This document shows, one piece after another, positions 8,708 to 62,564 of a stretch of DNA of 64,000 bases (the stretch's first letter is position 1; each line of letters begins with the position of its first letter). This stretch comes from Microthyrium microscopicum (lineage: Eukaryota): assembly GCA_010405405.1 (NCBI GenBank), contig MU004243.1:677340-741339 (forward strand), written 5' to 3'. The notes below the pieces were generated by a model that had not been told where the DNA came from, ran no database searches, and was given only the letters and a program-made list of their open reading frames with translations. Both the position numbers and the translations under genes were made by a program.

Positions 8708-8733
8708 ATAAGGCTGAGAGACGACCTGATTGG
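8708..8733 (-). promoter_or_regulatory. Family bipartite element upstream of paralog 1
   Basis: Minus strand reads CCAATCAG-GTCGTCT-CTCAGCCTTAT. Confidence 0.7.
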
Positions 8734-8907
8734 CTGATCCCAGTTACTGTTCTTGCTTAAGGCTGAAAAGAAAAGCTTTATTGCCATCGTGTGCTTAGAG
8801 TGAAAAAGTCCAGTGCAGTTTAGATGGTTCCAGATCATTGAACCCTGTCTTACGATTTTCTAATCAAGAGATGTGCATGTTGCCGGTTACCTGCTGCTAG
8901 GCTCCTA

Positions 8908-9144
8908 CACTGGTTTGCGAAATGTGGTGAACTCCGACCCTCCCCCCTAGTGTCTCCAAACATGTGAATTTTGCAGAATCTAACCAATCAGGCTTTTTAT
9001 AGAGGGACGGAATCTGAACATTGGGACCTAAGCCAGAGCCTTTACCACAGAGTAATAAGCTATTCTCGATATGATTGGTTGTATTCTGCAAAAATAATCA
9101 TATTGGGGAGGGGGTCAGAGTTCACCACATTTCGCAAACCAGTG
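8908..9144. mobile_element. MITE-like non-autonomous TIR element (237 bp), Tc1/mariner-type TA flanks
   Basis: Left end CACTGGTTTGCGAAATGTGGTGAACTCCGACCC and right end GGGTCAGAGTTCACCACATTTCGCAAACCAGTG are near-perfect inverted repeats; TA on both sides; no coding capacity. Confidence 0.85.
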
Positions 9145-9446
9145 TAGCACCATGAACTCGACCGCAGCGCAAACCACCAAGTGAAATCCTTCCATCAAGA
9201 AACTTCTTGAGTCAAATACCTTACCCAAAAATCAACAGTAATTGTCTGAAGATGTTTTCTTGAGGACATTGTGACCATTTATAGGTTTGCCAATGGCGGT
9301 GTAACGCTAAAATTGGTTCGGCGTGTACATGGCACGCGCTCGATGGACGATGATCACAGAGGCAATTACATCTCAGCGAAGACGTATGTTTGCAAGCCTT
9401 AGCGTTATAATATAGTATAGAGCGACAATAGCACCCTCTCCGATCC

Positions 9447-10687
9447 CTAGCCAACTCTGAACTCATGCCCCTTCCAAAACTTCCACAAACAATCTGCAAC
9501 CTGTCCCGGTATCGAAATAGGAACTTCATGCCCAGCATCGAGTATTATAGTATGCACATTCTCTGATCCTACCGTCTCCATCATATCAGGCTCCATCTCA
9601 TCCACCAGCACAATCGGATCCGTCCTCCCCAAGATCAGCACCAACTGCCCGCCAATCATCCCTTGCTCATAGCCATGCCCTCTTGCTCTCTGCTCATCAA
9701 GCCTCCTCCCGATCACCCTAAACGCAGCATGTTGATTCGTAATAGGCGCGTGCCGTATGCCAGACATGAACGCATCCACAAAACCCTCATGGTGATCAAG
9801 CTGCCACTGGACCGCCGCATCCATCACTCGCGTCTCTTTGCTATCTGGCCCCAACTCAGCTGCCACTGCATCTTCCAGGTCTATCCCACCCTCTTCGTCG
9901 GTGTGTATTCTCAGAGCAGACGGATTATGTAGACGCTTGGCGACGAAGTATTTAGTGATGAAGCTGGGAATGATACCTTCCGTACGGTACAGCCAGTAAC
10001 TACGCCAGCTTACATTCTTTTCACGCACAAGGCCAGATGTGCATAGTAGTACGAGAGATGAAACCATGGAGGGATAGTAGCGTGTGAAAGTTGCTGCGAT
10101 GCCGCCGCCGAGTGAGTAGCCGATTATGGAGAATGCGTTGGGTGTTGTCCAGGAAAGTTTGGATGATGATAGGACTGATAGAATCTGGGCGATGTATAAA
10201 TGTTCGGTATGTTGGTAGTATGTTGGATTATCTGAATAGCCGCGGCCGTAAAGATCTAGTAAATGATTAGTTTTATGTTTTTAAGTAGAGAATACCGTAG
10301 AGATATATTGGGGGACGTACCGAACAACATAACTCTACAACCCTTTTTGACGAATTCATTGGTAAGGCCTCGAAAACTTATACATGGTGTGCTGATTCCA
10401 GGTATGAAGAGTACTTTATGCCCATCTTCGGGACCATATTCGTATACTCGTATAGATCCCCATGGTGTTTCTACTTGTCGGGCGCTTGGAAGTGTATCTG
10501 GCCCATATGCTAGTTTTGAAATTTGGTCGACGGATAGCGTGGGAATTGTGGTCTTCAGGGGCGACGGAGTTATGTGAAATATTGCTTCACTACGTTTGCG
10601 ATTACGATAGTTTTGATAGCTTACATATCCTCCGATTGCGGTTGCGCCGAGGAGGATTGCGAGTATATTGTGGCGATTCCATGACAT
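9447..10687 (-). CDS. Alpha/beta-fold hydrolase with N-terminal membrane anchor (2 exons)
   Basis: Hydrophobic N-terminus ILAILLGATAIGGY; FIPGISTP; nucleophile elbow IGYSLGG; GRTDPIV and DAGHE catalytic Asp/His regions; one intron near 10258-10319. Confidence 0.85.
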
Positions 10688-11085
10688 TGAACTTTGAAGT
10701 TGGAACAGAAGCGGACTTGAGGAGACTAAGCGATTGTGGAGTCTGACTGATAACTGTTGGATGGCGATTTGTTGTATCGAACTCCATTTGCTTAAAGTAG
10801 GTAGTTGAACTGGTACTTGGAGTTTCTCGGGCTGTTTCAATATGCAGCGCTAGGATGAAGTTGGAAGGTTTATGAGAAAGGAGCTACCAACGGAGAATTT
10901 GGAGCCTCTCCATACCGGAGGATCTTATCTGACTGGTACCCATAAATACAGTCTCTTCCTCAACTATCAGAACTGTTATCAGAATGATTCAGCAAAATAT
11001 AGAACCATGGATAATTGACAAACTTGGTCGTCAAAGAGGTGGTGTCAAGCACGTACTACGATGGGCCATTCTGTTCTAATGTCTA

Positions 11086-28499: not shown

Positions 28500-30653
28500 A
28501 TGAGTCGAAAACGAAAAGTGACGGAGGAATCAGAACCAGGTGAGACCCTCAGTGTTCTCCCTTCAATTTAATTAGCCAGGATCTAGGAATTCTTTGCTAC
28601 AGTGTATGGTGAAATAGGATGTCCTTTTTAGAAGAACTAACCATAACCCAATGGGAGCGCGCATTCTTTCTGCTCACTGGGAGGAGATATCATTGCTAAC
28701 TTTTTGAGATAGTTACTCTCAAAAAATCAGCACTTGAGCCGATTAGCGCTCTACAAGCACTATCAAAAGCGTCAAGGATCCATCCTCGGAATCTCGAAGA
28801 TGAATTATCAAGCTTAGAGGCCTTTCATGATACTTCCAAAACATCCAACGGAAGTCCTCATGGAGAACGTATCACAGACCTGGACTATGATAGCGAGGCA
28901 GGAATGTCCGACAACGAGTCAGACAGTGAACCATCATCTCCTAATACTCCATTTGTCGACCAAGTCCTAAGTTCCTGGAATGGTCAAAAGGCAAACACTG
29001 AACCAGCTATCGATGGCTCGGAACGCATCAAGCTTTCGTACGATCAGACTCTCACCAGTGTTGGTCACTACGAACTCAAGGTCATCTCCGGTGTAGTCTC
29101 GATGTACGGAGCATATCTGACTACAAAATCAATAACTCGTAGGGTCCTGGCGTCGTCCACCGAGTCATTACCGGTGATTCGATGTGTCTCTGGTGATTGG
29201 GCTGAGATTCAACTATCGAGTGTCAACGATACAAGTGTTTCTCCAGACCTCAGTGCTGTATCACCCCTTTTTCAAGGAGTGTGGAAATGCAAATGTGAGC
29301 ACTGTGTGGTCAATATTTCGGCAAGCTATATCAAGGTAAGCAATACTGAAGTCTCCAAATCTTGATCTTGACAATTCCGTACTGACTGGCCATCAGCTTC
29401 GTCACTCGAGCGAGCATCATTTGGCCAAAGTCTCATCACTTGGAACATCCGTGGATTGGCAACAATATCTTCATACCAATGCGCAAAGAAGCTCGTCTAC
29501 AAACGGGGCTTTTTCAATAGTTGTCACAGGTCAAAATCCCTTGGAGATATCAACATTTTCCAGACTCTTGACAAACTCCCTCCTCACGCTTGGCAAATCC
29601 AAAAGCCAAAGTCAGGTACTTTTTCTTGACCTAGATCCTGAACGATCTGAGAATGGCTGGCCTGGACATATATCTCTGTCAAAAATTCAGCAGCCAGTAC
29701 TACAGCCAAATTGGACCCATGATGCGCAAGCCAATGATACTATCCTAAGAGCGCACCCGATCGGCGTCAAATCCAACGGGCGTAGTAAAGCTAGATACTT
29801 GGCCGGTGTCCAAGATCTTGTCAGACTTGCCAACAAAATACGTATAGCGAATCGAAGAGACCCTATTCAGCTCCTCATACACTGCCCAGCTTCCGCTCAA
29901 ATCTTTGGTAACGGTCTCATCAAAAACATCCTCGAGATAGTTACCGATGCCGAAGTGGTGAATATCTCAAAAACCCAGCTTTCAACGATTCCACCCACCC
30001 ACAAAGTGACGCAGCTCCCACCTCTACCAGAAAATATAGCACTCTTTTCCTCTAGATCAGTATCTCAACAGCGAGACATGCAGCTTCAGTCTTACTTCCA
30101 TACAACCTGCCGCCCCAAATCATCACCGTGTCCTAGCCCCATCACTAGCTGGCGGCCGTATGTTGTCTCCTATAGCGAAGGCAGATGTGATTTTGCCGGC
30201 TTTCATTTCACCCCTGAAATTCCTCATATGTACCCAGGCATGCTTTCAAATCTATTGAATGGCACGTTAGTGTCCATCGTGGTTGCAGACGATAACATGT
30301 CGTTCGCGGAGCATGAAATATTGAGGGGCGAGAAGGATGATTTGCCATACTTTGCCCCGTCGAACGATCCCATCATCGACGCTACCATGTGCAGCTCGAT
30401 AGGTATTGCACTCATTCGCAGCATAGATGTAGAGAGGAAGCTACTCCTGATATTAGCACCGCCGGACATGTCAAAGATAGCTTCAGAACGGATCGTGCTA
30501 GTGGCAGGTTTATTTGATGTGCCGAGCTGGGCGTATCGAGAGGACTACCACTTCCGGAAGCATGTCGCGCAAACTGGGGATGCTGAGGCCCGAAAGCATT
30601 TTGCGGATACGTCGAGTGGTGTCCCATGGCTTGAGTGTTCAGACATCGTCTGA
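28500..30653 (+). CDS. GRC3: Grc3/Nol9-like polynucleotide 5'-kinase homologue with degenerate P-loop; multi-exon
   Basis: VGHYELKVISGVVSMYGA...LPVIRC, STFSRLLTNSLL, FLDLDP, LQSYFH, LNGTLVSIV, IALIRSID...LILAP, FDVPSWAY; Walker A position reads GQNPLEIST. Confidence 0.8.
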
Positions 30654-30768: not shown

Positions 30769-30794
30769 CCCATTAGGCTATGTCTCAGCCTTGC
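30769..30794 (+). promoter_or_regulatory. Family bipartite element (variant) upstream of paralog 2
   Basis: CCCATTAG-GCTATGT-CTCAGCCTTGC; same 7-bp spacer, degenerate CCAAT half. Confidence 0.5.
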
Positions 30795-31091
30795 GTTCAT
30801 CATTTCGCAATACCACGCCAAGCCGTCATCTTTCTGCTGTATATCTATCGACAAATCCTTGGTAAATCTAGACACACTATGTTGCTAGTGCCCAGTAAGC
30901 TACCTAAAATGTTGGTAAGACAACGTGTTCCAACCTGGGCCAACTAGCTTCGAAATTTACCAAATTTTCTCACACTCAAACCTAGATTTCCTACATCCTC
31001 TCTTGTCAACACCACAACGCGCTGCTCTTCCTTTTGCTCCACCGATACAGTCTGGAACAGTTAAACTTTTGTGAAAATCATATACTTCGAT

Positions 31092-32407
31092 ATGGCTACT
31101 CGTGACCCAGCCGTACGCTACCCTAAGCGCATGCGATCCGCCATTTCGTACACAGAAACCGATGATCTGAGCGAATCTGAGGTCGCCTATGAGTCTAAGG
31201 ATGACGTGGACTTCGAAGCACCTGTCAAGAAGCAGAAGAAGGCCTCAAATGTCAGAAAAGCACACGCGTTGGCTGACGACAAGCTGACCGATGAGCAAAA
31301 ACGCCAACGCGCAATCTTCCCATTTCTCAGACTGCCAGGAGAGATTCGGAACGAGATCTATCAATGGTGTTTGTGCGTTGATGGTGGCCAACCCATCAAG
31401 ATCCATTCTCCTCCAATTAAATATCCAGGTAAGATGTTCCCAATGAATCTTCCAGAACTTCGCACGTCGCATTGCGTTTGATGGCTACCATGAGATGCGG
31501 TCCTTATCGAGCGCTATAGACACCACTGGATACGTTGTGAGTTTCACAACTTCCAACTCGCAAAGACTATTCGGTTTCTTCGAAGCTCAAAGCCTGTTGG
31601 CTCTGTTCCTAGATCTATACTGACTCAAACTCAGGTAGAGTTAGTTATATTACGGCAAAGCAAAAAGCTCTAGTCAGCGAGCAATCCGGCCACAGCAACA
31701 AGACAGAGTCTAGACCCAAATACCTCCTGGTGCCTCATCTAATGCCAAGAATCCTACTACTCAACCTGCAGATAAATCAGGAAGCAACTCCATTCTTGTA
31801 CCAAAACCGCTTCATCTTCTCCACCACACGAGCACTACATGCTTTCCTTGTCAAAGTTGGCAAAAACAATTGCAACCACCTTCGTAATATCGCCATCTGT
31901 CGACTCTCAAGAAAAGACCGGGTTAGTCGTTATGACATATTCATGACATTACAACAGCTTACTACATGTACCAATGTACAAAGCATTGATATGGATCCCT
32001 TCTTGGAAAGTCTGGAGTGGAATCGATTCAACGTGACTCTAAACGGCAACCTATCTGATGGCTCGGTTGAGGTTGAACTCAAAGCATTTGCGGAACACTT
32101 CTGGGCGGCCACGAGCCACTGGTTTCGAGCTGTTGCTTTGGCCAAACGAAACATATTTGCTGGCCTGCAGATACTTGTCTTTGCCGACGATTCGCTAGAG
32201 CGAACACTTCAGCGGGCCCGTGGCGTCAAATATTCTTGGTGGTACCCTGGCTCTGGTTACCAGGGTCAGTTATTGAAGAGACTTGTTGCCTGTACGAAAC
32301 AGGCCTTTGATACTGAGATGAGATCGCTCATAAAGAGCGACTTCAGCGGCTATGAAGTTGATCCTCAGGGCAATATGCTCATTAATTTGCCTAATCGATT
32401 CCGTTAG
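31092..32407 (+). CDS. F-box-like/2EXR-like family paralog 2
   Basis: RYPKRMRSAISYTE, FPFLRLPGEIRNEIYQWCL, intron 31429-31634 restores frame, PRILLLNLQINQEATPFLYQNRF, WFRAVALAKRNIFAGL, VDPQGN. Confidence 0.85.
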
Positions 32408-33159
32408 GAAGATCTAAATGACGGTCGGATACAACGAACGCAACACCTCTCTGCTCTCAAGAATCACATAAATTCATCCCTTATCAAATGATATGTCAAG
32501 CATAGCACCCTCTTCCCTATGAACATCGGTGATGGGAGCCATCGGGCCTGATGGGAGTACGACCTTTATCCTGCCATGCCGTTGGGTGTTTTCGAAGTAT
32601 TAGTGCCGTGGCCTGCTTGGAATGAGATATGTAGATTATTAATATCACTTGTTTTCTCATTATACTGACAAAAAAGACGACACACTCCCATGGAGTGGTA
32701 TATCTACCACCTCCTACGCTTTATTATTGAATGCTTTAATTTCCACCAGATACGTGATGCTGGAAATGCTTCAAGTAATGTGATAGGAGATAGTGCATCT
32801 TTTGTTTAGCGGCCTTGATGGGATATCGAGTTCGTCTTCATTGGGGTTGTGCCATTCATTTCGTTTTCCCTTGCGATCTACTCAACACTGCATGGCAAAA
32901 TAACTGGCGTACTACCATCAACTCCAATAACTCCCAGACGCTACGCTCTGTTATCGAGTGCTTTATTTGCCATAAAGGGTTTTCGGAGTGGGAGCATTTA
33001 TCAGATACGAAGGGAATTGAAGCACCTTTTGGTTAGCAGCACTGGTGGTAGCCATTCAGAGCTGATGAGAGTACGCCATTGATTTTGCCATGGCGTTGCT
33101 ACTGATCAAGGTTTAACAAAGGGAAATTTTCAGTCTTGTAAAATTGCTGATTAGCACAG

Positions 33160-33189
33160 CCAATCAAGCTGCTTATTGTTCAGCCTTAT
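33160..33189 (+). promoter_or_regulatory. Family bipartite element upstream of paralog 3 (11-bp spacer)
   Basis: CCAATCAA-GCTGCTTATTG-TTCAGCCTTAT. Confidence 0.6.
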
Positions 33190-33615: not shown

Positions 33616-34922
33616 ATGGCTCGCTGGTCAAAGATCACTTCCAAAGCTTCCGACATGGCTGCCTCTGTGCGCTATCCCAAGCGCAAACGAACTACTATAT
33701 CGTATGCTGAAGCTACGGATCCGGCCGAAATCGATGTAGTAGCTCACGATGACGAAGACGTCAAGTTCCATGACATCGAATTCCCTGCGAAGAAGAAGAA
33801 GAAGGGTTCCAAAGCCAAGGTAGTCAAGGAAGACACCCTTACTGCTGAGGAGAAACAACGACGTGCAACATTCCCATTCATGAAGCTTCCCGGAGAAATA
33901 CGCAACGAAATTTATAAGCTGTGCCTGCTGATCAACCGAAATAAGTCCATCAAGTTCAAGGACCCGACATCTGATAGTCCAGGCAAAGTGGAAGTCCAAG
34001 TCAAGAAGAAGAGACAGCAGCGACGCTTCCGATGGGCGGCTACTTCCACCGCCGACCAAGACAAATGGCGTCCTTTTGTGCCTCATATGATCACCAACGT
34101 CTTGCTTATCAGCAAACAGGTCCACGCGGAAGCAGCTCCATTCCTCTACACTAACACGTTCAATTTCCCCTCCCAACGAGCTTCAAATGCCTTCCTTGTT
34201 ACGATCGGACCCACAAATTGCAAGCTTTTGCGTCGTATTACCTTTGGCGACCCTGAGGAGGGCGATCTAGAGGCATTCGGCTGGCGTCGAGATATGTTCA
34301 TGACCTTTCAAGCCCTTAGCGCTTGCACGAGCCTGGAACAGATTCATGTAAGAATCCCCCGATTTGTTATAATCCTATGTTTCCCCATCGCATGTTGTGG
34401 CTCCCATCAACTTCTATGGCTGCCACAAGATGCGATGGTGTTTCGTGCTAGAAAGACCAAGCGGTCTTTTCAACGATCATTGCCTTTGGTTGCACTGCCT
34501 TTTCATCAGAATCTAACGAGAATTAGGTACATGCACCATTGGAACGGTTCTACTCAAACCGCTTCACGGTAGACACGGTAGAGCCTGCCTTCGTTAGTTC
34601 GAGCCGCTTCGCGATGGACATCTGGGAATTGTGCGGTCATTGGTTTCGGGCAATAGCTTTGGCTCAACGAAACATATTCGCAGGACTGGACATATTTACT
34701 TTCAGCGACGATGTTTGGGAGAAGGCGCTAGGTATGGCTGGCAACGCTGCAGCTAGCTTCACTGGCGAAGAAACCGCCACCGACATGAAAAGCCTTGTGA
34801 AGGACGCGAAAGATAGCTACGACGTTACAATGAGAGGCATAATTCGAAAGAAGATGAGCGGTCTGGAGGCTGATAAAGACGGATTGCTGCCCCAAATACC
34901 ACCAGTTCAGCCTGTTCAGTAG
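33616..34922 (+). CDS. F-box-like/2EXR-like family paralog 3
   Basis: RYPKRKRTTISYAE, FPFMKLPGEIRNEIYKLCL, intron 34348-34526, WFRAIALAQRNIFAGL, ADKDG. Confidence 0.85.
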
Positions 34923-35439
34923 ACCAGCCGGATTACGGCCACTGCCTGCATGGATTCTGTCGAAACCACCAAGGGCGATCAAGCCCATCATATGCGATCA
35001 AGCCCAGCATCATTTACGATCAAGACAGGGAATTGTGTGCACGATATGTGCTGTTCTCTTTCTTCGATACTCTGATGTTCCATCTGTTTGGTGAGACAAA
35101 ACTGCGACTGTTTTTGCGGGACTAGATATTTTCAGTCTAAATTGAACTTGAATGAGCAAGGTCGTAGTTGTGTTCATCTTTTCATTAGCGTTGCTTGTTG
35201 CTAAAACGATATGTACCTGCATAATCAATATAATTGGGTTTGCCCATCTCTACCTATTTTTTCGATCATTTGCTCAATGCTATTTTGTCTAAACATCCTT
35301 TCAAGTGAGATATATCAGCGCAGGATGTGCGCCTCTTTTCCATTACATAGACCTTTTGATTGACAATGATACATTGGCCACATTGCCGTGGTGGTCTAAA
35401 TGGTTGCTTTAGCCTTATCCCAAGATTATATAACTTCAA

Positions 35440-35465
35440 CCAATCAGAGTGCTTCTCAACCTTAT
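35440..35465 (+). promoter_or_regulatory. Family bipartite element upstream of paralog 4
   Basis: CCAATCAG-AGTGCTT-CTCAACCTTAT. Confidence 0.65.
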
Positions 35466-36121
35466 GCAATTCAGTAATTGCCTGCTCGATAATAGGACTT
35501 GGAGTAGGCACACACCCATCACGATGTCTGCCATCGCACTATAACAGAAGAAGATGCTTTACTTCCTAGCGTACTCGAAGTCGAACCAGATATTAAGTGG
35601 GTATTATCGCATTCGAGTTCACAGCGCTGCGTATAATAGACATTGTAATGGCTGGGAGCTTGGGATTCAAGGTCGGCCTTGACTCGCGGCAGTGTTCCAG
35701 ACTTCCATTCGAGCAGCCACCCAGTATTCTCGTCGGTTGGGCGATGTGTGCCACAAAGTCATGAATTAACATCATCTGTTTTCACCTGAGGCGCACAATA
35801 ATGTGTTCAGGCTTCGTTAATGAGGTGAACTACGACTTTGGCGTGCAAATTTCGATGATTCTTTCTTCTTTGAGTTAATCCCGCCTCAAATAAATGACTG
35901 TGAAGTCACTTGAATGCCTCGCGTGAACCTGTCCCGGGACCTCTTGCTCCACCTCTTTTCGCTTTTTCTCGCTCTGTTACCTTGTCCACCGCAAATTCTT
36001 CAATCGACACGGGTTGACTTTCCACCCTGCTATTTGCCCAATTTATAACAACCCGCTCCCGTATTCCAGCACTTTTTACCGCGCCTCAACAAGGTATACT
36101 CGCCGTCAAGTGCTCTACATC

Positions 36122-37407
36122 ATGTCTAACGAGGCACTTATCAATTCCGCGGCGCCCAGCGCCAGCGCCGGCACCGCGCGCTATCCGAAGGGTGAGCATG
36201 TATCTCTCTCTCATACTGAACTTGTCAACTTGCGCATCAAAGACGACAATGCCGACGGGGACTCGTTTGACCGGCCAGAGTCGGTTGGTGACTTTGAACT
36301 TAGGTGCCAGATCATGGTAAGCAAAAGCCATCTAACTTTACATTCTAGATGAGCTATTGACCAAAGGATAGAACGCTCAAGATGCCCATGCAACTATCAA
36401 CATCGCGAAGTCATCGAATACGTCCGCAAACTTGCGTCGAGACACCTTCCCTTTCTTGAGTCTGCCTCCAGAGATGCGTAACGAGATATACGGTTGGTGC
36501 TTGGTAAGTCTTCTTTCATCTCAAGAAAATCCCAGGTTCTACTTCAACCTGTGTTGGCTAGAACGATATGGGCCTGGCTTGGGTTTTATTCTTATGCTAA
36601 TAGAATACAGGCTATGCACGACAACGAGCCTCTCATTATGAAGGATACTGTTACACTCGTCCCAGAAAAAGTCATTTCGAATACTGGACTTCTGCAAATC
36701 AGAATCTACCCAACAAAAGGCCCCTGTCGCCTAAATCGTGCAGAAGGCCGAAGCCGCGCTGTTCCCTTGATTACAAGCATCTTGAGAATCAATAAGCAAA
36801 TACATGCCGAAGCAGCCTCCCTGCTATACTCACGATTGCTTAGCTTACAGTCCTACAAGGCCATGGCCATCTTTCTGGGGGAATTGGCACACAGCATCGC
36901 GTCTTCCTTCGGAAAATTCATTTTCGAACTCCTCGATATGACTTCGACATGATAATCCAACGCCACGAAATCTCCGTCATGCTTCAGACATTGGCCTCTT
37001 TCCCAGATATCGAACAAATACAGCTTGCGACTTGGCCCGAACAGCTGACCGACTACACTCGGCCGAGCGATATGCGGCAAGCTCTCGATGAATCTATGAC
37101 GAAGTTTGTTCGCCTCTTCTTGATGGTCTGCGGACACTGGTTCAGAGCCATCGCTATAGCTAAGCGTAACATCTTCGCGGGCCTAGACGTCTTCTCGTTT
37201 GAACAATCCTTCTGGGAAGATTGTTGCCAGCAATTCATTCAGAACAAATGGCTGGAAAAAGATATCGAGCGTGAGTGGATTCAAGATATCTCTACGCCTG
37301 CGATTCGGTTTCGGAACACCTTTATCGCAAAATTGAAGATCATGTTGAGGGATCAATTGAGCGTCTACCGAGCTGCTGAGGACGGCAGCTTCCCGACAAT
37401 CACATAG
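36122..37407 (+). pseudogene. F-box-like/2EXR-like family paralog 4 with a 1-nt frameshift (pseudogene or sequencing error)
   Basis: FPFLSLPPEMRNEIYGWCL; introns 36317-36371 and 36504-36610; frame breaks at G5 run 36877-36881; WFRAIAIAKRNIFAGL; AAEDGSF. Confidence 0.65.
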
Positions 37408-38374: not shown

Positions 38375-38400
38375 CCAATCGAAAGTCTTCTCAGCCTCAT
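38375..38400 (+). promoter_or_regulatory. Family bipartite element upstream of paralog 5
   Basis: CCAATCGA-AAGTCTT-CTCAGCCTCAT. Confidence 0.65.
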
Positions 38401-38805: not shown

Positions 38806-40375
38806 ATGTCTAAGTCGAAAAAGATGAGCTCATTGGCTACCGACGATGTCACTCTGCGCTCCTCGAAGCGCAAGCGAGTGGCGGACTCCTATGTCGAAGT
38901 GGATAACTTGAACGACCAAAACAACATCGAAGGCGCACACTCTGACCGGAAAGATGATCTCACAATGGAGGAGATGAAGAAGCAGATGAAAGAGATGAAA
39001 AAGATGATGAAGAAGATGAAGGAGATGGAGATGTTGAAGAAGATGATGAAGGAGATATTTGCCGATACCTCAGACTCAGAGGGTTTGATTAGCGACCATG
39101 AGCAGAAGTCAAAAGCCAAAGTGAGTTCATTGACCCTAATCTTTAAAAACTCAAGCATTCACTGACTTGCAAAAAGATATCTGCTGTCGCTAGAGTTCGC
39201 CTTGCCAAAACTATCAAAGCCAAAGGCAAGGCCAGACGCCCGAGACGAGACATCTTTCCATTCATGCTGCTACCAGGCGAAATCCGCAACCAGATCTACG
39301 ATTGGTGTCTCACTAATGACCGAGAAGCTGCGATTGAGGTACAAGATCCTCCAAACGATCACCCGGAGCGCGTCCGGATTGAACGTGAGTATGGGAATGA
39401 GAACACCATGCCTTACAAGCGATTCACGTTGAATGCTCTTGAGCCTAAGATTTTGCGGCTCACCAAGGTTATCCATGTAAGTCTTCCTGAGTTTACCTTC
39501 ATTCGTTTGAAATGTTCAGTTCTTTGGCTTCCAGTGGCTGGTTCCCAGCAAATCTTACGACTCTCATCGAGACATCTATGATCCAGTGTCATGGATCTCA
39601 TTAGACTCGATAGCTTCTGGAGACTTTTTATGGTTTTTACTGGAAAGTCACGAGAAGGCCTCTACAACCGTGTTTTCACACTCATCTCGCCGGGTTTGAC
39701 GTTGTTATTTTATATTTACTGACATTTTGTAGAAAGAAGCGGCTTCAATACTCTATTCTCGATGCTTCATCTTCGGCTCCGCTAAAGCAGTGGTCGCCTT
39801 TCTCGCTGCCATAGGCCCACAACACTGCTTATTGCTTCGACAAATTGTCTTCGGCCGCGGCCGAAACTTTGACTTCAAACGCTCCGAAATATTCGCAATG
39901 TTTCAATTGCTTACGGCCTACACCAACATTGCGTCAATCAAATTCAATGCACGGTTCCCGTTAGTTTACTACGAACGTATCACGTAAGATTTTGAATCTC
40001 TTGAATTTCAATATCATTAAATGCATAACGCTAACGAATTCCAGCTTCCAGAACAGTAGAGACTCATTCTTTGTCAAGGGCTTTATCCAGATGATCTGGG
40101 ATCTCAGTGAGTCCTGGTTCAGAGCCATGGCCGTTGAACAGGGCAATATCTTCGCTGGAGTAACAGTTTTCTCGATTGAACAGGTTTTTTGGGAGTTTGT
40201 TGGTCCAATGGCCAAGATGAAGGGCCGCTCTCTCACGAACGCGGAGATAAGTTACGCTTGGAGCCAGCGACAGACTACCGGGGCTCAGCTACAGCAGTGT
40301 TTCAACGCTGGAATCAAGAAATTCTTACGCGCCAAGTTCAGCATTTATCAGGCTGATGACAACGGTCATTTCTGA
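38806..40375 (+). CDS. F-box-like/2EXR-like family paralog 5 (4 exons)
   Basis: RSSKRKRVADSYVE, FPFMLLPGEIRNQIYDWCL; introns 39121-39176, 39477-39732, 39984-40044 all restore frame; WFRAMAVEQGNIFAGV; ADDNGHF. Confidence 0.85.
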
Positions 40376-40529
40376 TAGGTTATCTGGACACCGGACTGGA
40401 CTGTGCACATTCTCGCCAATATCCGATCTCTTCGACGCCATCGCAGAGCAGAGGATCAGCACTTCATGTTTCAACTCCATGACTGATTTAGCACACCACG
40501 CCACAAAAAATCGCAGTACCAGTGACTGC

Positions 40530-40795
40530 TCAACACACCATCGCCTGATTACAACACCACCGTTTGCTTACAACACTATCGCCAGTTTGCATCAACCATG
40601 CATTGTTACAACATCACCACCTGTTTACAACACCACTGCCTGCTTACAACACCGCCGCTTGCTTACAATGCTACTGCATGCTTACCACACCACCGCCTGA
40701 TTACAACACCACCGCCTGGTCAAAGAATCACCGTCTGTTTACGACACCACCGATTGCTTACAACATTACTGCCTGTCAACAGCACCACCACTAAT
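40530..40795 (+). repeat. 19-bp tandem minisatellite, ~14 degenerate copies, consensus TTACAACACCACCGCCTGC
   Basis: Successive units such as TTACAACACCACTGCCTGC, TTACAACACCGCCGCTTGC, TTACCACACCACCGCCTGA, TTACAACACCACCGCCTGG with no spacers. Confidence 0.9.
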
Positions 40796-41614
40796 AGCAC
40801 TATCCCATGCTTCACTGACACCGCACCAACATAACTTACTGCTCGTTTCCTTATCAAGATCGTCGTCATCTGACTCTATCGGAAAGTCTGAAAGTGGAAG
40901 ACGGGCCACGACCAAAAGTTAGAACAAATGATTGTAGTGAATGATAAAATTATTGTATAAATTGACGCTTTCCCTGTGACAATGATTGTTGATCTGAGTT
41001 ACCGGAAGGAGCTCGATGAGTAGGCGGGTAGACAGTAAAAAGGCTTTAGTCACAGCTGGAGACTCTTGATAAATAGCACGCGGCACGAAGAGCTTATCAT
41101 GTAGACATGTTTATCGAAACTGCTCGAGGAAGCTAAGTAATCTTTTCTACTTGAGAAGATTATATGTCACTGTGCAAGCCCAAATTGTGTTACGAAATCC
41201 GAGCGAAACCGAAGAATATCGTGTTCCCCATTGCTTTGGATGGCCATCGTAGAAAGAGTTTCGTATCTAGTCCTTTGGATGCCGTTGAATGTGAGGGTAT
41301 CTAACAGCCAAACACAAGTGACGATATTTGTTTAACTCAAAGACTTTTACTCTCCCATTTTATTGAATGGCCCCTATCCAAAACCTCCTCAATTGAGTGC
41401 GGCGGTTGCAACCAAATGCCGTGGATGTCTTACCGTTCTACGCCGATGTTACCAAATAGTCTTTTCAAAATATGTTAGCTCTTAACATAATACTGTAGTA
41501 ACGAGTTCTAACTGCCCGGGTTCTCATAATATGAACGAAATTTCAGCGACACAAAAAAAGAGTTGGCTGCGTTCTCTTAACAATGAAGTTGAGGAGCATT
41601 GAAGTTGGAATTGG

Positions 41615-41640
41615 CCAATCATGATGAGTGTCAGCCTTAT
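41615..41640 (+). promoter_or_regulatory. Family bipartite element upstream of paralog 6
   Basis: CCAATCAT-GATGAGT-GTCAGCCTTAT. Confidence 0.7.
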
Positions 41641-42133
41641 AGCCGCATTTGATCTGTCACCAGCCACTAGCACTACCTCAACCACTTCAACATATTTATA
41701 GCCAGTGAAATCTCTTATGCACCTATAGCATTCCTACTGCTTGATTTATCCCCAGCTCTTGCCAGTCATATCATTGATAATAACTCCTGGCCTCAGTCAT
41801 GTGGATGAGCTGCCTGTTATAGCTCTTCTGGCCCATTTAGAAAGGCTCCTGCCAGCACCACGACGTCACTGGCAGAAACTGACCTCCAGCAGTAATATCG
41901 CTGGGGCTTGGGGCACCCGAGAGTCGTGTAAAATTCCGTGCCTAACCTTTCTCAAGAGCTTAAAACTTTCCCTTTTTCACCCATCCTCCACTCTACAACT
42001 CAACCTCGACTTGCACACTACCACCACATCGTACAAAATCCCCTCAAGATCACAACTTTGCCTTGCCTAACAGGTTGTCAGCGCGTTGACCGACTTCAAA
42101 CTCTTCAGTTCTATTACCAGTTCGTTATCAGCA

Positions 42134-43287
42134 ATGGCTCAAACTCAGTCCGAAGCAGCCCTTATAGCCTCTGCCGGTTATGGTGATCCCCGATATCCAC
42201 CACGCAAACGCGCAAAAGTCTCTTATATCGAGGTGGAAGAGTTCGCAGACTATGATACTGATGTTGATGTTGATGATAACGACGGTGATGAGAACGACTC
42301 TCCAAAAAAGGTTTGTCAACAAGGCTCGCATTTTCAGCGGCATCCTGCGCACAGATTTCTAATATATTGTAGCACGTTAGCAGACGAAAAGCAGCCACTC
42401 GGGGTCTAACCAAGCGCCGTGGGAACCAGAAAGAGCATGGAATCTTCCCCTTCATGAAGTTACCAGGAGAAATTCGCAACCTCATCTACGAGTTTTGTCT
42501 CAAAATTGACCCTGCGACACCTATCGACATCCTTCATCCAGGCTCCACCCAACCAGGCAAAATTCGAGTTTTAAAGCGTAAGCAGAATAGCTTGGCGTTT
42601 CTTACCAATGGGCCCTGCGATAACTCTAATTCTGCATTCAATTATCCGGACCACGTTCGAGTGCCGCACATCATTTCCAAAGTGCTTGTGCTCAACAAAG
42701 CAATCGCTTTAGAGGCTTCACGATTCCTTTACGAAAACACCTTCAACTTCTGTACCCCACGAGCAGCTCAAACCTTTCTCGCAGTCATTGGCCCTGATAA
42801 CCTTAGACGTATCACTCATGTCACATTCGACCGCAAGTCTAAGTCGATGATTAGTCGCCAACACGAGATGTTCATGGCATTCGTTATGCTCCAGCCCTGT
42901 GTGGGAATTAAAAGCATTGTATTCGCTGGTTACTTCCCTCAGCCATATTCAAGCAAGGTCATTCTCCACGCTGCCGAGAATAAGTGGAACATGTCATTTT
43001 TCGCCAGCATGATATTTGAAGACTGCGGATCTTGGTATCGATCCATTGCTCTGGCGAGACGTAACATCTACGCCGGTCTCACTGTCTTGACAATTCGTCC
43101 GCGAACATATGGTTTCATGATTCACTCCTACCTCCGAAATCAGGCCTATAGCCCCGCATGGATTGCAGATTTCCATGCAAAGACCGACCAGAATGTAGCC
43201 ATGGCGGACTGCTTCGAGGCTGATATGAAGTTGCTCCTCAAGAAGAAGCTTACCTTCCCTCACGTTGATGATCAGGGCAATTTCTAA
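42134..43287 (+). CDS. F-box-like/2EXR-like family paralog 6
   Basis: RYPPRKRAKVSYIE, intron 42311-42372, FPFMKLPGEIRNLIYEFCL, WYRSIALARRNIYAGL, VDDQGNF. Confidence 0.88.
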
Positions 43288-57993: not shown

Positions 57994-59219
57994 TTACCGC
58001 ACGGTCGCTGAGCAGAAGTTTCCTTCTTCGTCTGCGAGATAATGCTGCATCTCTTTTCGAAGGAGCACCTCCATTGCAGACTTGAAGGTTTCCTTCATCG
58101 CGGCGCAATGCTCTTCAAAGTTGTCATAGAAAGCAGGTCTATGCGGACTGTCGAAATGGTGTAGTCTAGCGCAATGGGTATTGCATAGATCTTTATAGCT
58201 CTCCGGCTGAATAGTCAAAACCTTGATTCCTGCAAAGATGTTGCGCTTGGCGCAGGCAATGGCTCGAAACCAATAGCCGCAATCTTGCCAGATTATCTCA
58301 GCAAGCTTGGACAAATCGACAGCTACACCGTCGAAGGCGAGCTGATTTGCGTATTCGACAGGCAACGTGCCGCTCCAGACAAGTTGTTGAAGTTGCACGC
58401 ACGATCTCAGCAAATAGAATGTCATGTAGACTCCTTGCCGAGTACCATGGCGGAGTAGATCTTCTTCTAAATCGAAAGAGATCTTACGTATCAATCCGCA
58501 ATTCGTTGCGGCAATATCTGCGAGAAACATTTGTGCCCCGAGTAGGGTCTTGAATTTGAAAGATTTCTGGTATAGGAAGAGCGCAGCTTCTGAGGTGATC
58601 TGTTTATTTCAACCGCAAGATATTCAATGGGAAATGAGGCGCTTGCACCTTGTACTTCGGAGCAGCGGTATGGTCGGTGTATGGGCCACTGACCGAATTG
58701 ACAACAACTGGACCTCGTAGGGTAGGTGCAGGAGGAAGCACAGATATAGCCGCGCCGTTTTCAGCCTCGAGGCAGTATTTGTAGACCATAATCCGCAACT
58801 CGGGCGGTAATGTCATGAAACCGAAGTTTCCATCCTGTTGGTTCTGCGCGGAGTCAATTGAAACGGCATCTGCCGCTTGGTCTTGGTGAGGATTCTATAG
58901 TCTGTTAGAAATTTGATGTCTCGTACTAGCTTACTTGGGTACCTATTTAACGCACCTTATTCAAAGATATATTTCCTTCGCCGCCGTGTTGATATGATAG
59001 CAAGAGGTTGGTATCGCTTTGCGCGTCATATGCCATTGACACGCCCACGCCTTCAAGGTCGTGCGCGTTACCAACTCCAGGAGCAGTGCGACGAGCATCC
59101 TCAGTCTGGTCTTCAACACGAGCCGGAATCGCGCTCATAGATAATTGCATTGCGTATGATGCTTCCGTAGGTAAATCACTATCGAGAGGTGATCCGAAGA
59201 TAGAAAGTTGAGGGTTCAT
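57994..59219 (-). pseudogene. F-box-like/2EXR-like family paralog 7 with a 1-nt frameshift (pseudogene or sequencing error)
   Basis: Intron 58895-58955; FGFMTLPPELRIMVYKYCL; extra A at 58607-58609 gives TTG AAA TAA instead of ..LNKQITSEAALFLYQ; WFRAIACAKRNIFAGI; ADEEGNF. Confidence 0.65.
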
Positions 59220-59590: not shown

Positions 59591-59616
59591 ATTAGGCTGA
59601 CGAGCATTCTGATTGG
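59591..59616 (-). promoter_or_regulatory. Family bipartite element upstream of paralog 7
   Basis: Minus strand CCAATCAG-AATGCTC-GTCAGCCTAAT. Confidence 0.7.
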
Positions 59617-60490
59617 TTGAACTCGTGTAATTGCTTGTGCCAACCCGCAATTAGGCTGCTAATGGAGATCTTAACTCATGAGCCTATCTTAGCATACAGA
59701 TGTGTGAGACAAGGCGTATTAACGCGGGCCTGAAGATATAGCTTGCTTGGACCCTTTACTTCCTTGCTTTTAGCAACTTCTCCACGCAATCAAATTTCCT
59801 CAAATGTAGGAGTTGTCAAACAGAGTTGGCTCAAATCACCACTGGACATCTTCCTGCCAATGTCAATCAAAAACGAGATGTAACAGATGACCAACGTAAG
59901 TATGAACTCCAGCGCTTTCATATAAGGAAAGCGCTTCATACCCTTTGATTGTTTATAAAGAACCCCTCCATGCGTGTGCTATGTGTCAGGAGATCTACTA
60001 TACCGAATGAAGATGTATCGCATTTCATTACTCTTCCTGAACAGTCTTTGTAAGTTTACCTTGACAGAAGCGGTCACAAGTGTAAGTGAAGCGCAGCTTT
60101 CATAGACATCAATCAGGCATGAAGATATTTGAGAGTCATTCTTGACATTACGTTATCAGCCTCAAGCATTCTCTCTTTTTGGTAAAAATATCTCCTAGCG
60201 AAGTTTTCGTCCACTTTCAACGTTGTAGCGGCCGAACACTCGAAGTTAGCTGTTCATTTGATTGCCGACGAACTGGCAGAGTGACTCATGTCACAAGTGA
60301 CCACATCAGTTTCCATGATTCCCATCATGGCTTCCGGACTCAGCGTACCATACTTGCTAAAATAAAAGATAAAAGTGCTAGGGAACAATAACTTCGATGG
60401 GAAGTCAAGCTCTTCATGATGAAGTGTGCCGGATAGGAGCCGCATGATTTGATCAGCCGCAAGTCAATGTTTTGTGTAGAGCTTCAACAA

Positions 60491-61900
60491 CTAAAAGCTA
60501 CCTTCGTCGTCTGCCCCGAAAACAGCCATTTCACGTCGTAAGATAGATTTCAGTTGCTCCGTAACGCAATCCTCCAGCTGGACAGCTTTTTCGGGAATTT
60601 GGTGAAGGAAGTGACCTTGAATGTGGCGAAAATAGCTTAAAGACCAGTAAGTCGACAGCCGACGGCTTGCATCCGTACAGAGCCAGCGACACACATCCTC
60701 CCAGAAATTCCTACAGATTTTGAACACCTGGAATTGGTCAGTGATAAGTCCACGACAGGGTTTTACCGCAACCAGCACGTGCTGAAAAGAGCTTTCGGCT
60801 TTTTCAGCGTGACATCTACTATGCTTTACGGTAACCAAGAGGTTTGAGAAGAGAGTAACTTACTTCCAGTCCGGCAAAGATATTGCGTTTTGCTTGAGCG
60901 ATTGCTCTAAACCATGGGCCAGAGAATTCCCACAACATGCTAACCAAGTAATTTACCTGGAAGCTATCATCAACACAAATGATTCGGTCAATGTATGTTT
61001 CCGGTAGATATGCGTCCATTTTGATCTCGATAATGTTAACGCAGGCTGAAAGCAGATGGAATGTGATGAGCATCTCATGACGCCGGCCAAAGCGAATCAC
61101 CTGGTTCTTGGAAAACCAAACACGTTGTAACAGTGGATAGTTGTTTTGGCCCACCGCTAGTAGAAACGACTGGACGGCTCTAGCAGACTCGAACTCAAAG
61201 ACGTTTGAATAGAGCATTGGGCATGCTTCGGTACGAATGTCCTTGCAGATCCTGAGAATTTTGGGGATAAGCTGAGGCACTGCAATTTCATTGCAATAGC
61301 GGCGACGACCTTTCTGATGGGGACCGTTTTGTAGAAACTTCAAGCTCTTCTGCTTTGTGCGTTTAATCTTGATCTGCCGAGGATGCTGAGGAGGGGGATG
61401 CAGGATTGTCAAAGGTTTATCGTCAACAACAAGGCAGGTTCGATATATTTCGTTGCGTAGCTCTGGAGGAAGCTTCATGAAAGGGAATATGTGACGAGTG
61501 GGAGAATCGTTCTCCGAAAGGGTCTTGGACATTTTCGCTTTGCGCAAGGTCTAACGCTTAGTTGTTAGTAATGGACTCAGGCTTAGCATCACACGCCACG
61601 TACCTTGATCTTATTTTTGCTGACGGGACTGCTCGGTTCATTTGCAATGTTGTGCTCATAGTTGTCGCCATCGCTGACCTCTGCGGTCTCGACATATGAT
61701 ATAGCTGTTCGATTGCGTTTAGGGTACCGATTTGCCTGCTAGTTATTAGTATTCGATCGCTCTATGACAGCCACTGGAGTTGAACGAAGCCATGGTATGC
61801 CTGGTGGTCGTTTCATATCCGTCGAGAGACACAAATTTGTACGTGGAGTACTCACCTCAGCACCCGAAGTCGCCAACAGATGCATAGCTGGGCCAGACAT
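60491..61900 (-). CDS. F-box-like/2EXR-like family paralog 8 (4 exons)
   Basis: MSGPAMHLLATSGAE|QANRYPKRNRTAISYVE...|TLRKAK..FPFMKLPPELRNEIYRTCL...WFRAIAQAKRNIFAGLE|VFKIC...ADDEGSF; last intron 60728-60863. Confidence 0.85.
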
Positions 61901-62538
61901 AGCTAGTTCAAGCTACACGCTGACGAAATGTGTTTGTCTTAAGATAGTTGCGGAAAGGTGTTAGCATAACAATGGTGCTGAATAGCAGAGGCAACGCAAG
62001 AACTTGAGCGATGGCGCAGAAGGCTCACTGCAGGATTCGAGACGAGGTTAGTTGAAGATGATGATGGGGGATCGTGGAGGGGTACGCGAGTACAGAAAGC
62101 TAAGGAGGTTGCAGGAACTGGAATGTGTAAGAGAACTAAATATATAGCTTGTGCAGCGTAAGTTTCTATAGACCTGTCGCTCGAGTGAAGTGACGGCTTG
62201 CTTCGGTGACTATTTTAGAACGAGGTTGTAGAGCGAAGCAGAAGCCGATAAGCAAGTCAGTGACCGAGCTATACGTTAGTGCAAGAGCATTCCAAACCTT
62301 GGCTGATAGCGATGAGGCTGGGTCTCACCTGGACGAGTTCTATCCGATTGAGGGGAGGAGCTTGAACGAGCCAATTTGGGGAATGAGAGGTTACATCGGG
62401 CATCGCTGACAAAATAGCTAACACAAGTCGGTACGATCAGCTAGGCTGCCAGCTGGTAAGAGTTTAGATAGGAAAATTAGGTCACTGAAGTGATCAGGAT
62501 AGAGTGATAAAATTGTCTACCTCTATATATTGTCAGCT

Positions 62539-62564
62539 ATAAGGCTGGGGAGCATTCTGATTGG
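62539..62564 (-). promoter_or_regulatory. Family bipartite element upstream of paralog 8
   Basis: Minus strand CCAATCAG-AATGCTC-CCCAGCCTTAT. Confidence 0.7.

Follow-up and report, generated by a model that had tools for sequence, protein, structure and literature searches.

Each of the eight paralogs encoding F-box-like proteins in the 64-kb stretch of DNA under study, hereafter called the window, is preceded by a 26-nt two-part element, which forms a sharp island of conservation and is specific to the paralogs within the window. It would most likely act as a shared on/off switch of the eight genes. As judged from its sequence, and with cautious preference, the element is regarded as a transcriptional control site that would be read by CBC, the heterotrimer HapB/HapC/HapE and fungal NF-Y, together with a second, putative factor, and that would provide a common input to the family.

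By tblastn of the window, exactly eight paralogs of the 2EXR/DUF7730 (F-box-like) family were found, with one upstream element each (Table 1). The copies are located in three separate places of the window and on both strands; identity between their proteins is 23-40% and the terminal branches measure 0.8-1.85 changes per site; the genes are accordingly diverged enough to be taken as very old duplicates in this leaf-dwelling fungus. In paralog D, the spliced frame ends after 222 amino acids, with the C-terminal domain in a different frame. The element has the coding orientation in 8/8 paralogs, and the span from it to the start codon is 323-682 nt. Distances for A-C and E-H were taken from the public protein annotation, whose models match the window at 97.5-100% identity, while for D the ORF of the present analysis was used, because the annotated model spans the C-terminal end only. 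The coordinates and letters given for the eight copies in the initial annotation were all correct.

Table 1. Elements, additional half-2-like words and genes in the window (distance, first C of CCAAT to start codon).
Feature	Position	Strand	Distance (nt)	Remarks
Element A	8708..8733	-	467	CCAATCAG-N7-CTCAGCCTTAT, 0 mismatches to consensus; leave-one-out 31.2 bits
Element B, decayed	30769..30794	+	323	CCCATTAG-N7-CTCAGCCTTGC; pentamer no longer CSAAT; leave-one-out 16.6 bits
Element C	33160..33189	+	495 (456 to earlier in-frame ATG)	sole 11-nt spacer (+4 nt); 29.4 bits with spacers of 7-11 nt allowed
Element D	35440..35465	+	682	CAACC in both halves; 28.5 bits
Element E	38375..38400	+	431	CCAATCGA ... 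CTCAGCCTCAT; half 2 on minus strand GAGGCTG; 25.7 bits
Element F	41615..41640	+	519	24.3 bits; crossed by RNA contig 40941-42528
Element G	59591..59616	-	397	27.4 bits
Element H	62539..62564	-	664	25.6 bits
Half-2-like word CAGCCTTAA	8757..8765	-		32 nt upstream of CCAAT of A, same orientation
Half-2-like word TAGCCTTAT	35410..35418	+		30 nt upstream of CCAAT of D, same orientation
Half-2-like word CAGCCTAAT	59650..59658	-		42 nt upstream of CCAAT of G, same orientation
Gene A	7146..8266	-		annotated protein P0003, 356 aa
Gene B	31092..32407	+		P0002, 369 aa
Gene C	33655..34922	+		P0005, 362 aa; Pfam 2EXR + DUF7730
Gene D	36122..37407	+		annotated only as 142-aa P0008
Gene E	38806..40375	+		P0007, 398 aa
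Gene F	42134..43287	+		363-aa P0001, named at source as hypothetical protein / F-box domain-containing (Microthyrium microscopicum)
Gene G	57994..59219	-		P0006, 371 aa
Gene H	60491..61900	-		P0004, 366 aa; Pfam 2EXR + DUF7730

Mean pairwise identity amounts to 0.74 in half 1 with its CAG flank (CAG+CCAATCAG), 0.78 in half 2 (CTCAGCCTTATG) and 0.41 in the spacer; flanking sequence more than 10 nt away has 0.22-0.31, and the bin adjoining half 1 (-10 to -1) has 0.40. The DNA encoding the most conserved peptide block reaches an identity of 0.68, with 0.42 at third codon positions. This profile bears out that the length of the spacer is kept (7 nt in 7/8 copies) while its letters and the flanks diverge. 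Further blocks shared by the flanks did not stand out clearly from shuffled sequences (100 each), the scores of the four best blocks being matched or beaten in 23, 15, 29 and 4 of 100 shuffles. Alignment of the upstream regions throughout, named in the initial annotation as a sign of simple residual homology, was not found, the flanks being at random identity, and residual homology was rejected on this ground. Considering protein divergence and branch lengths, unselected DNA of the age of the paralogs would be expected to be randomised, as the flanks are, and with proteins of such low identity the element would not be leftover homology. It is thus extremely improbable that the element is functionless, a residue of homology or a short gene-conversion tract among duplicated promoters. 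All copies do share one ancestor, and the neighbouring elements G and H have an identical 15-nt run (half 1 and spacer); but both halves are as conserved as the best coding block between random flanks, the copies are dispersed over separate places and both strands, and conversion requires flanking homology, which is absent here.

Specificity was assessed within the window, to which all figures apply. When up to 3 mismatches to the consensus were allowed, 7 matches were obtained versus 0.03 expected (100 shuffles), a number attained in 0/100 shuffles, and all 7 matches sit at paralogs, the C site being matched in a shifted register; B was overlooked because it requires more than 3 mismatches. 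With leave-one-out matrices, 7/8 sites scored 24.3-31.2 bits versus a maximum of 18.2 bits at 126,684 other positions, and copy B tied with the best background match. The neighbouring genes are housekeeping genes (SHMT, RPA34, TyrRS, a MutS homologue, GH15, SDR, aldo-keto reductase and others). Both the consensus-pattern scan and matrix scoring revealed no comparable site before the non-family genes of the window, in agreement with the initial annotation.

Half 1 contains CSAAT in 7/8 copies, is preceded by purines at -2/-1 in 8/8 and followed by C at +1 in 7/8; it is a canonical CCAAT box (RR-CCAAT-CA-G) and, by its letters, a putative CBC site. The conserved core of half 2, TCAGCCTTAT, spans positions 12-21 after the pentamer, and half 2 itself begins at a single fixed distance of 10 nt from the pentamer. 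According to PMC7144946, the CBC footprint extends over 13 nt 3' to the pentamer, with the directly adjoining stretch as the target of HapX; the half-2 core straddles the 3' border of this reported footprint, which is the docking place of HapX. In the proposed mechanism, each paralog would have inherited the 26-bp element from the ancestral gene, and purifying selection would have retained it. Half 1 would be read by CBC, and the 7-nt spacer would fall within the approximately 13 nt covered by the complex, so that its length would be constrained and its letters loosely kept. Half 2 would be read by a second sequence-specific factor abutting the 3' edge of CBC, at the HapX docking place known from Aspergillus; since it would abut this edge, both would bind jointly and provide the common transcriptional input of the family.

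The composite site of CBC and a partner had already been proposed in the initial annotation. The sequence fits such a composite kept by selection, given the CSAAT pentamer, the position of the half-2 core at the CBC border and the constant spacer, but a strict composite is blurred by copy B, in which the pentamer is lost (CCCAT) and half 2 is kept, and by lone half-2 words. The latter are present in 3/8 promoters, 30-42 nt upstream of CCAAT and equally oriented, versus 0.055 expected (Poisson P ~3e-5), and owing to these recurrences the half-2 word would be a recognition word in its own right. Two independent sites, that is, a CCAAT box and the word of a separate factor without protein contact, the 7-nt gap being kept by joint inheritance and little room for indels, would account for these words without adjacent CCAAT, for the retention of half 2 in B and for the additional 4 nt tolerated in C. 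This arrangement is nevertheless considered unlikely, because 7/8 copies have identical spacing although the duplications date back far enough for all sequence more than about 10 nt away on either side to have been randomised. Further points count against the joint reading by CBC and a partner: the insertion in C would rotate a rigidly docked partner by more than one third of a helical turn, and the lone upstream words show that a neighbouring CCAAT is not in every case required by the partner word.

A single factor might, without CBC, read a direct repeat of YCARCC 20 bp apart (TCAGCC-AAT ... TCAGCC-TTAT), CCAAT being partly coincidental. In 5/8 copies (A, C, D, E, G), CARCC occurs before or overlapping both halves; the two halves of D each contain CAACC, and the start-to-start distance of 20 bp corresponds to two helical turns. 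Conservation of half 1, however, extends through AATCA(G), with 7-8/8 at each of positions 1-7 and 5/8 at the final G, and thus tracks the CCAAT-box consensus instead of the half-2 word; half 1 of F and H reads TGGCC, and the covariation in D is one case, which makes the repeat a very improbable explanation.

Transcript evidence bears on the position of the element relative to the start of transcription. The RNA contig of gene B has joints for a leader intron (30914-30984) and a coding intron (31426-31631). Because the spliced contig joins 30913 to 30985, with the first exon ending 119 nt past the element, transcription of B must begin before 30913, either near the element or ahead of it; the ORF of the upstream gene (30078-30653) stops 116 nt before the element. 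As B lacks the pentamer and is still found in a spliced transcript, CBC may be dispensable at this gene. Contigs of run X1 cross the element in F and also in B, where the contig takes in the upstream gene as well, so that at least some transcripts include the element, which may therefore lie in the mRNA leader rather than upstream of the start. In A, C and F, ATG density is ordinary for the first 136-200 nt from the start of the element, followed by zero ATGs over the next 264-326 nt to the start codon; among the ATG-to-ATG gaps of the window, 1.7% are at least 250 nt long. This is consistent with leaders starting downstream of the element.

An action at or after initiation, either in the core promoter and start-site region or as a signal in the untranslated leader, would agree with the crossing contigs, with the fixed orientation to the gene and with a distance to the ATG that is long for a fungal promoter. 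On the other side, half 1, flanks included, matches the textbook CCAAT box of double-stranded DNA; the alignment of the eight elements yielded no consensus RNA structure (0 predicted pairs); and the final ATG of the element is present in 4/8 copies only, for which reason a conserved upstream ORF is absent. Given also the ATG-free stretches, and the neighbouring transcripts that confound both contigs, such an action is quite unlikely, and the element would rather lie upstream of the start sites and be bound by CBC and its putative partner.

The CBC:HapX site of Aspergillus is described in PMC7144946 as 5'-CSAAT-N12-RWT-3' with T(T/G)AN half-sites 11-23 nt downstream, in agreement with the wording CSAAT-N12-RWT used in the initial annotation. 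Common to both systems are the CCAAT anchor, a fixed-length, non-conserved stretch corresponding to the 13 nt of CBC-covered DNA, and a second conserved part that begins at the 3' border of this stretch in one orientation to the pentamer. It is improbable, however, that the partner is HapX, with the element as an unusual CBC:HapX site and the family under iron control. In favour of HapX are the equal geometry, its recognition, which is highly variable and promoter-specific according to PMC7144946, the T(T/G)AN half-sites, of which 8/8 copies have one or more on one strand or the other at 11-23 nt downstream, and the cccA site of that study, which contains GTCAGC, where copies F and G have GTCAGCC. 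Yet RWT exactly 12 bp downstream, listed in PMC7144946 among three criteria that define high-affinity sites, is missing in 8/8 copies; positions 13-15 read CAG or CAA in seven, as had been noted initially, and TGT in C. A chance match to T(T/G)AN (13 positions, two strands) is estimated to occur in more than half of random sequences. The 10-11-nt word, constant in the family, is the opposite of the 3-4-nt half-sites differing by promoter in that study, and the genes there belong to iron metabolism, those here encode F-box-like proteins.

In Candida glabrata, CBC-Yap5 sites combine CCAAT with a Yap response element (TTACTAA) at 10-14 bp, a fixed spacing taken as a sign of direct co-binding (PMC5471220). 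There, too, a sequence-specific partner depends on CCAAT at a narrow, unusual distance, and co-occurrence marks a small regulon; TTACTAA/TTAGTAA is found in 0/8 elements here, and the distance from pentamer to half 2 is single. Animal NF-Y modules combine CCAAT with a USF/MAX E-box at 10-12 bp, the precise distance being likewise interpreted as a sign of protein-protein contact and direct co-binding (PMC4889920); they differ in kingdom and partners, and the CACGTG E-box is absent from the eight elements.

For the calcineurin-dependent response element of Crz1, GAGGCTG and GNGGC(G/T)CA are given for yeast and GTGGCTC and GAGGCTC for Aspergillus (PMC2873923, PMC11868491). Unlike in these, the leading G is replaced by A or T in 7/8 copies here and the conserved word is longer, TTAT/ATAA included; the cited passages describe no CBC dependence of Crz1. 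On its minus strand, though, half 2 reads A-W-A-AGGCTGA-G, AGGCTG is present in 7/8 copies and copy E has the exact GAGGCTG, a resemblance that, as a lead rather than an identification, would point to the C2H2 zinc finger class for the putative partner.

The eight paralogs A to H were recovered by tblastn with the window's own open reading frames (ORFs) as queries. They lie in fungal DNA whose genes are spliced; a public protein identical to one window gene comes from Microthyrium microscopicum (class Dothideomycetes, order Microthyriales) and bears the source name hypothetical or F-box domain-containing protein. In a Pfam scan of 10 ORF pieces, judged by the gathering scores of PF20150 and/or PF24864, C and H exceeded the score for both 2EXR (PF20150) and DUF7730 (PF24864), F scored 21.5 against DUF7730, which is under the cutoff of 27, and the remaining paralog pieces were fragments without the N-terminal domain. 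The pieces that include this domain contain 2EXR and DUF7730 together with a weak F-box-like match. The genes belong to the 2EXR/DUF7730 family, the homology of all eight being established by tblastn and profile search. When a profile of the eight was run against 1.84 billion representative proteins, exactly 8 were found at E≤1e-30, the next match having an E value of 1.2e-19, with the bits falling from 175 to 87; these 8 proteins map onto the window genes with 97.5-100% identity. As far as this library shows, this points to the whole subfamily being located within the 64-kb window and, by the same token, to a lineage-restricted, locally amplified subfamily. The full proteins share only 23-40% identity, and their terminal branches measure 0.8-1.85 changes per site. 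A word-indexed protein search with F returned F itself as the sole match among 453 candidates. Scanning of metagenome contigs with the paralog alignment gave 264 stretches fitting the peptide pattern, none of which was a relative by tblastn. Both Pfam models are labelled domains of unknown function or F-box-like, and a literature search under "2EXR" yielded neither a paper on the family nor a function. The other genes of the window encode a serine hydroxymethyltransferase (SHMT), an RNA polymerase I subunit, a tyrosyl-tRNA synthetase, a MutS homologue, a GH15 glucoamylase, dehydrogenases, an amidase, and others.

Coordinates of the paralogs, their upstream elements, and further features of the window (distance: initial C of the pentamer to start codon)
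Feature	Position	Strand	Distance (nt)	Remark
Paralog A	~7.1-8.3 kb	minus		tblastn
Paralogs B to F	31.1-43.3 kb	plus		tandem; tblastn
Paralogs H and G	58.0-61.9 kb	minus		tandem; tblastn
Element A	8708-8733	minus	467	annotated start codon
Element B	30769-30794	plus	323	annotated start codon
Element C	33160-33189	plus	495	annotated start codon
Element D	35440-35465	plus	682	start codon from own ORF reading
Element E	38375-38400	plus	431	annotated start codon
Element F	41615-41640	plus	519	annotated start codon
Element G	59591-59616	minus	397	annotated start codon
Element H	62539-62564	minus	664	annotated start codon
Identical 15-nt run, G	59602-59616	minus		CCAATCAG plus spacer AATGCTC
Identical 15-nt run, H	62550-62564	minus		CCAATCAG plus spacer AATGCTC
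Block A-Y-C-T-Y-T-T-G-R-T-Y-R, A	8861-8872	minus		89-139 nt upstream of element across A, C, D, E; borderline
Same block, C	33024-33035	plus		borderline
Same block, D	35351-35362	plus		borderline
Same block, E	38282-38293	plus		borderline
CCAATCA word	8984-8990	plus		250-340 nt upstream of element A
CCAATCA word	9072-9078	minus		250-340 nt upstream of element A
Basic motif, examples	31113-31160; 33670-33720; 42185-42235			near N-termini
Paralog D	36122-37407	plus		introns 36316-36370 and 36503-36609 per RNA contig
19-nt repeat array	40504-40788			between E and F; under RNA contig 40423-40880
RNA contig cover	32670-33103			after end of B contig (32662)
AT-rich start of window	1-4000			GC 0.20-0.29 versus 0.43-0.50 across most of window

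Near the N-termini of B, C, D, E, F, and H, a common basic motif, R-Y-P-K/P-R-K-R-x-x-x-S-Y-x-E, is found, followed by an acidic stretch, a lysine-rich stretch, and the F-box-like domain; it was not seen in A and G. Its residues look like those of a nuclear-localization signal. The spliced frame of paralog D, opened by the ATG at 36122, reaches a stop after 222 amino acids near 36949, its conserved C-terminal domain is found in another frame (ORF 36949-37407), and the public annotation comprises only the 142-amino acid C-terminal end (protein P0008). D looks either frame-broken or mis-modelled; nonetheless, it has spliced contig cover and a well-kept element. The array between E and F repeats a 19-nt unit (CGCCTG-TTACAACACCAC-like) head to tail at least 12 times and, since this period is not a multiple of three, is non-coding. 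The very AT-rich start of the window resembles the AT-rich isochores left by repeat-induced point mutation in Dothideomycetes.

Upstream of each paralog, in its coding orientation, a single element is located, and all eight were found with the letters and at the places described in the initial annotation, the distance of 320-680 nt to the ATG being measured as 323-682 nt. The 26-nt element is composed of a CCAAT box (half 1), a spacer, and a second word (half 2); positions are counted after the pentamer. The pentamer is CCAAT in seven of the eight copies (consensus CSAAT) and CCCAT in B. Purines occupy -2/-1 in all copies, C stands at +1 in seven, and a purine at +2 in all eight. In general, CCAAT boxes have the extended flank consensus RR-CCAAT-S-R, and half 1 would qualify as such a box. 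To read the element without the CCAAT-binding complex (CBC; HapB/HapC/HapE, the fungal NF-Y), as a 20-bp direct repeat of CARCC words, seems highly improbable. Over half 2 (CTCAGCCTTATG), the most frequent letters are present in 5, 7, 8, 8, 7, 8, 8, 8, 6, 7, 7, and 5 of the eight copies, which leaves TCAGCCTTAT at positions 12-21 as the firm core; despite the lost pentamer, B keeps 9 of 11 half-2 letters. The spacer measures 7 nt in seven copies and 11 nt in C, just as had been noted. Its sequence is not wholly free, because G and H share AATGCTC and D reads AGTGCTT. The 15-nt run common to G and H, whose proteins are 27% identical and whose sisterhood is unsupported in the tree, could be due to weak constraint on the spacer or to very short conversion between neighbouring promoters.

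When the sequences are anchored on the element, their mean pairwise identity is sharply bounded. It amounts to 0.22-0.27 per 10-nt bin from -100 to -21, rises to 0.31 at -20 to -11 and 0.40 at -10 to -1, reaches 0.74 in half 1 (CAG+CCAATCAG), is 0.41 in the spacer of the 7 copies other than C and 0.78 in half 2, and returns to 0.24-0.30 per bin from +27 to +126. In a MAFFT alignment of the upstream regions of all eight paralogs, hardly anything except the element is aligned; the flanks have diverged, as had been claimed, and simple residual homology, which would have aligned the regions throughout, was not encountered. For comparison, the best-conserved peptide block, W-F-R-A-I-A-x-A-K-R-N-I-F-A-G-L, has a DNA identity of 0.68, with 0.42 at third codon positions. 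The element is not leftover homology, because unconstrained DNA of such age would be randomized, as the flanks are. It is very probably a cis-element of transcription, of whatever kind, that is kept by selection, and the notion that it is devoid of function hardly deserves credit.

When up to 3 mismatches are allowed, the consensus pattern occurs 7 times in the window against 0.03 expected, always at paralogs, and 0 of 100 shuffles reached this number. In a leave-one-out scan, in which a matrix built from seven sites scored the eighth on both strands with spacers of 7-11 nt, A and C-H obtained 24.3-31.2 bits, while the best of 126,684 other positions obtained 18.2 bits, the top three background positions being all without CCAAT. 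No comparable site was detected at the non-paralog genes of the window, which bears out the earlier impression. With 16.6 bits, B ties with the best background match, and its element is therefore recognizable only through its homologous place. The element is a real observation, statistically strong within the 64-kb window. In metagenome contigs, the DNA pattern CCAATCAG-N8-YCAGCCTTAT occurs at 63 loci. When these were searched by tblastn with 8 ORF translations of the paralog region, of which 7 were paralog pieces, no match was obtained at E≤0.1, the lowest E value being 0.25; the loci are taken as chance matches. A literature search on conserved promoter motifs of fungal paralogs gave nothing relevant.

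Further shared 9- or 12-mers clearly above shuffles were not found in the 120-146 nt on each side of the element, the scores of the best four flank words being reached by 23, 15, 29, and 4 of 100 shuffles. The best downstream 12-mer (CACTACCTCAAC-like) was rejected as not significant (15/100). The best upstream 12-mer (ATCTCTTGATTA-like) is borderline (4/100) and can be clearly made out only in A, C, D, and E; part of this block (TTGATTAG, TTGGTTAG, or TTGATTGA) resembles an inverted CCAAT box that has decayed. Two more exact CCAATCA words are located upstream of the A element.

Transcript cover was taken from sequencing run X1, which consists of contigs whose RNA nature is guessed and which show neither starts nor strands. 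Four GT..AG joints are contained in these contigs, two of which match annotated exon borders of the B protein. The B contig is joined from 30913 to 30985, leaving a leader intron of 71 nt, and then from 31425 to 31632; the first exon would end 119 nt past the element, with the start site upstream of 30913. Since this contig runs upstream through the element and merges with the neighbouring gene (ORF end 30653), it cannot show where the B transcript begins. The F element is crossed by contig 40941-42528. The C and E elements are without X1 cover, and for D the cover sets in only at 35838, 373 nt past the element; these copies are uninformative because contig ends do not mark starts. Contig depth differs among the paralogs, and such depth cannot rank expression. 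The cover at 32670-33103 has the top depth figure of the stretch, includes a contig with 255 upstream letters fitting nothing in the window (loose end 32933), and ends about 57 nt short of the C element; it could be a long B 3' end or a separate transcript.

An indirect hint to the position of the leaders is provided by the ATG triplets of A, B, C, E, and F. Their density is ordinary for the first 136-286 nt from the element start, and no ATG occurs in the last 142-326 nt before the start codon; gaps of at least 250 nt make up 1.7% of the ATG-to-ATG gaps in the window. This would suggest that the leaders of these five genes begin downstream of the element, 136-290 nt from its start. In mammals, the CCAAT box is described as being located 60-100 bp upstream of the transcription start (available text of PMC4889920). 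TATA-like words are found at no consistent distance, and between element and ATG there is none in four of the eight copies. An ATG ends the element in 4 of 8 copies only and 0 consensus RNA pairs are predicted at the element; neither a conserved upstream ORF nor an RNA fold is therefore likely. A leader or core-promoter element, as the crossing of the B and F elements by contigs might bring to mind, is quite improbable.

According to the available text of PMC7144946, the CBC sitting on its pentamer covers 13 nt of the 3' side. In the present element, these nucleotides would be CAG, N7, and YTC, with the half-2 core at positions 12-21. The spacer, fixed in length and variable in sequence, would simply be gripped by the histone-fold subunits with no reading of its bases, and half 2 would be the seat of a putative CBC-tethered partner. 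Fixed spacing between a CCAAT box and a partner site is described for Yap5 with the CBC in Candida glabrata (10-14 bp; Yap response element, TTACTAA; PMC5471220, in part) and for NF-Y with USF/MAX (10-12 bp; PMC4889920, in part). From this published geometry and spacing logic, the element is read as a composite site for the CBC plus a partner, which is somewhat probable. By sequence inference, its class is that of the CCAAT-anchored composite promoter elements, which is a known class, with a second word that is new.

The composite reading had been put forward in the initial annotation, together with a putative regulon whose core would be co-expression of the paralogs; the reading is a reasonable one that fits the CBC geometry well, while its strict form is strained by B, C, and lone half-2 words. 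These are the points in favour of two independent sites: B, without a pentamer, keeps half 2 and is still found in a spliced transcript; the spacer of C is 4 nt longer; and in three promoters a lone half-2 word is found further upstream. The window contains 5 exact copies of CAGCCTTAT, each within an element, and 27 copies with up to one mismatch; of these 27, 7 are within elements and 3 others lie 30, 32, and 42 nt upstream of CCAAT in D, A, and G, all in the same orientation (expectation 0.055, P ~3e-5). On these three points, two independent sites are given a modest chance and are considered unlikely.

If the composite reading holds, the element would be an unusually clean bait for another CBC partner, as it is long, sharply bounded, present in eight copies, alike in geometry to the known sites, and changed in its second word. 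A natural spacing series is provided by seven copies with 7 nt, one with 11 nt, and one with the CCAAT destroyed. It would also be the first functional handle on 2EXR/DUF7730 proteins, and with an undescribed-partner switch and a basic, nuclear-localization-like N-terminus, feedback of the family onto its own promoters would be conceivable. If it is an ordinary pair of promoter sites, interest would be confined to M. microscopicum.

Among known systems, the CBC:HapX high-affinity site was compared. In the available text of PMC7144946, it consists of the fungal consensus pentamer CSAAT, of RWT read by HapX exactly 12 bp downstream, and of T(T/G)AN half-sites 11-23 nt downstream, with a preference for the 7 bp directly beside the CBC-covered DNA. 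CSAAT is present in seven of the eight copies, and at least one T(T/G)AN on either strand is present in all eight, a word too short to discriminate (A, D, F, and H have TTAT at +18, and A, B, D, E, F, and G have TGAN on the minus strand, the T being at 14). RWT, however, is found at 12 bp in none of them. The position after N12, reported earlier as CAG or CAA, reads CAG in six copies and CAA in one, and is TGT in the remaining copy. HapX is therefore a rather improbable partner. TTACTAA at 10-14 bp from CCAAT, as for CBC-Yap5, is absent from all eight elements. The minus strand of half 2 (AAGGCTGAG) resembles the GAGGCTG form of the Crz1 element CDRE, which is also described as GNGGC(G/T)CA and, in Aspergillus, as GTGGCTC or GAGGCTC (PMC2873923; PMC11868491, both in part). 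Exact GAGGCTG is found in E only; the other seven copies differ at the leading G, and D differs also inside the core. This likeness hints at a C2H2 zinc-finger reader of half 2, as a lead and nothing more. Of TCAGCCTTAT and ATAAGGCTGA as fungal factor sites, no description was found in literature lying mostly outside subscription journals; among the matches listed, the exact words gave primer-type matches only. The direct-contact factors of the fungal CBC named in the partly available sources are Hap4, HapX/Hap43, and Yap5, with roles in respiration and iron control. It is possible, if rather doubtful, that besides Hap4, HapX, and Yap5 a further sequence-specific partner would dock at the same 3' edge of the CBC, read the 10-nt word TCAGCCTTAT, and form with the CBC a dedicated switch for a lineage-restricted, tandemly amplified F-box-like family.
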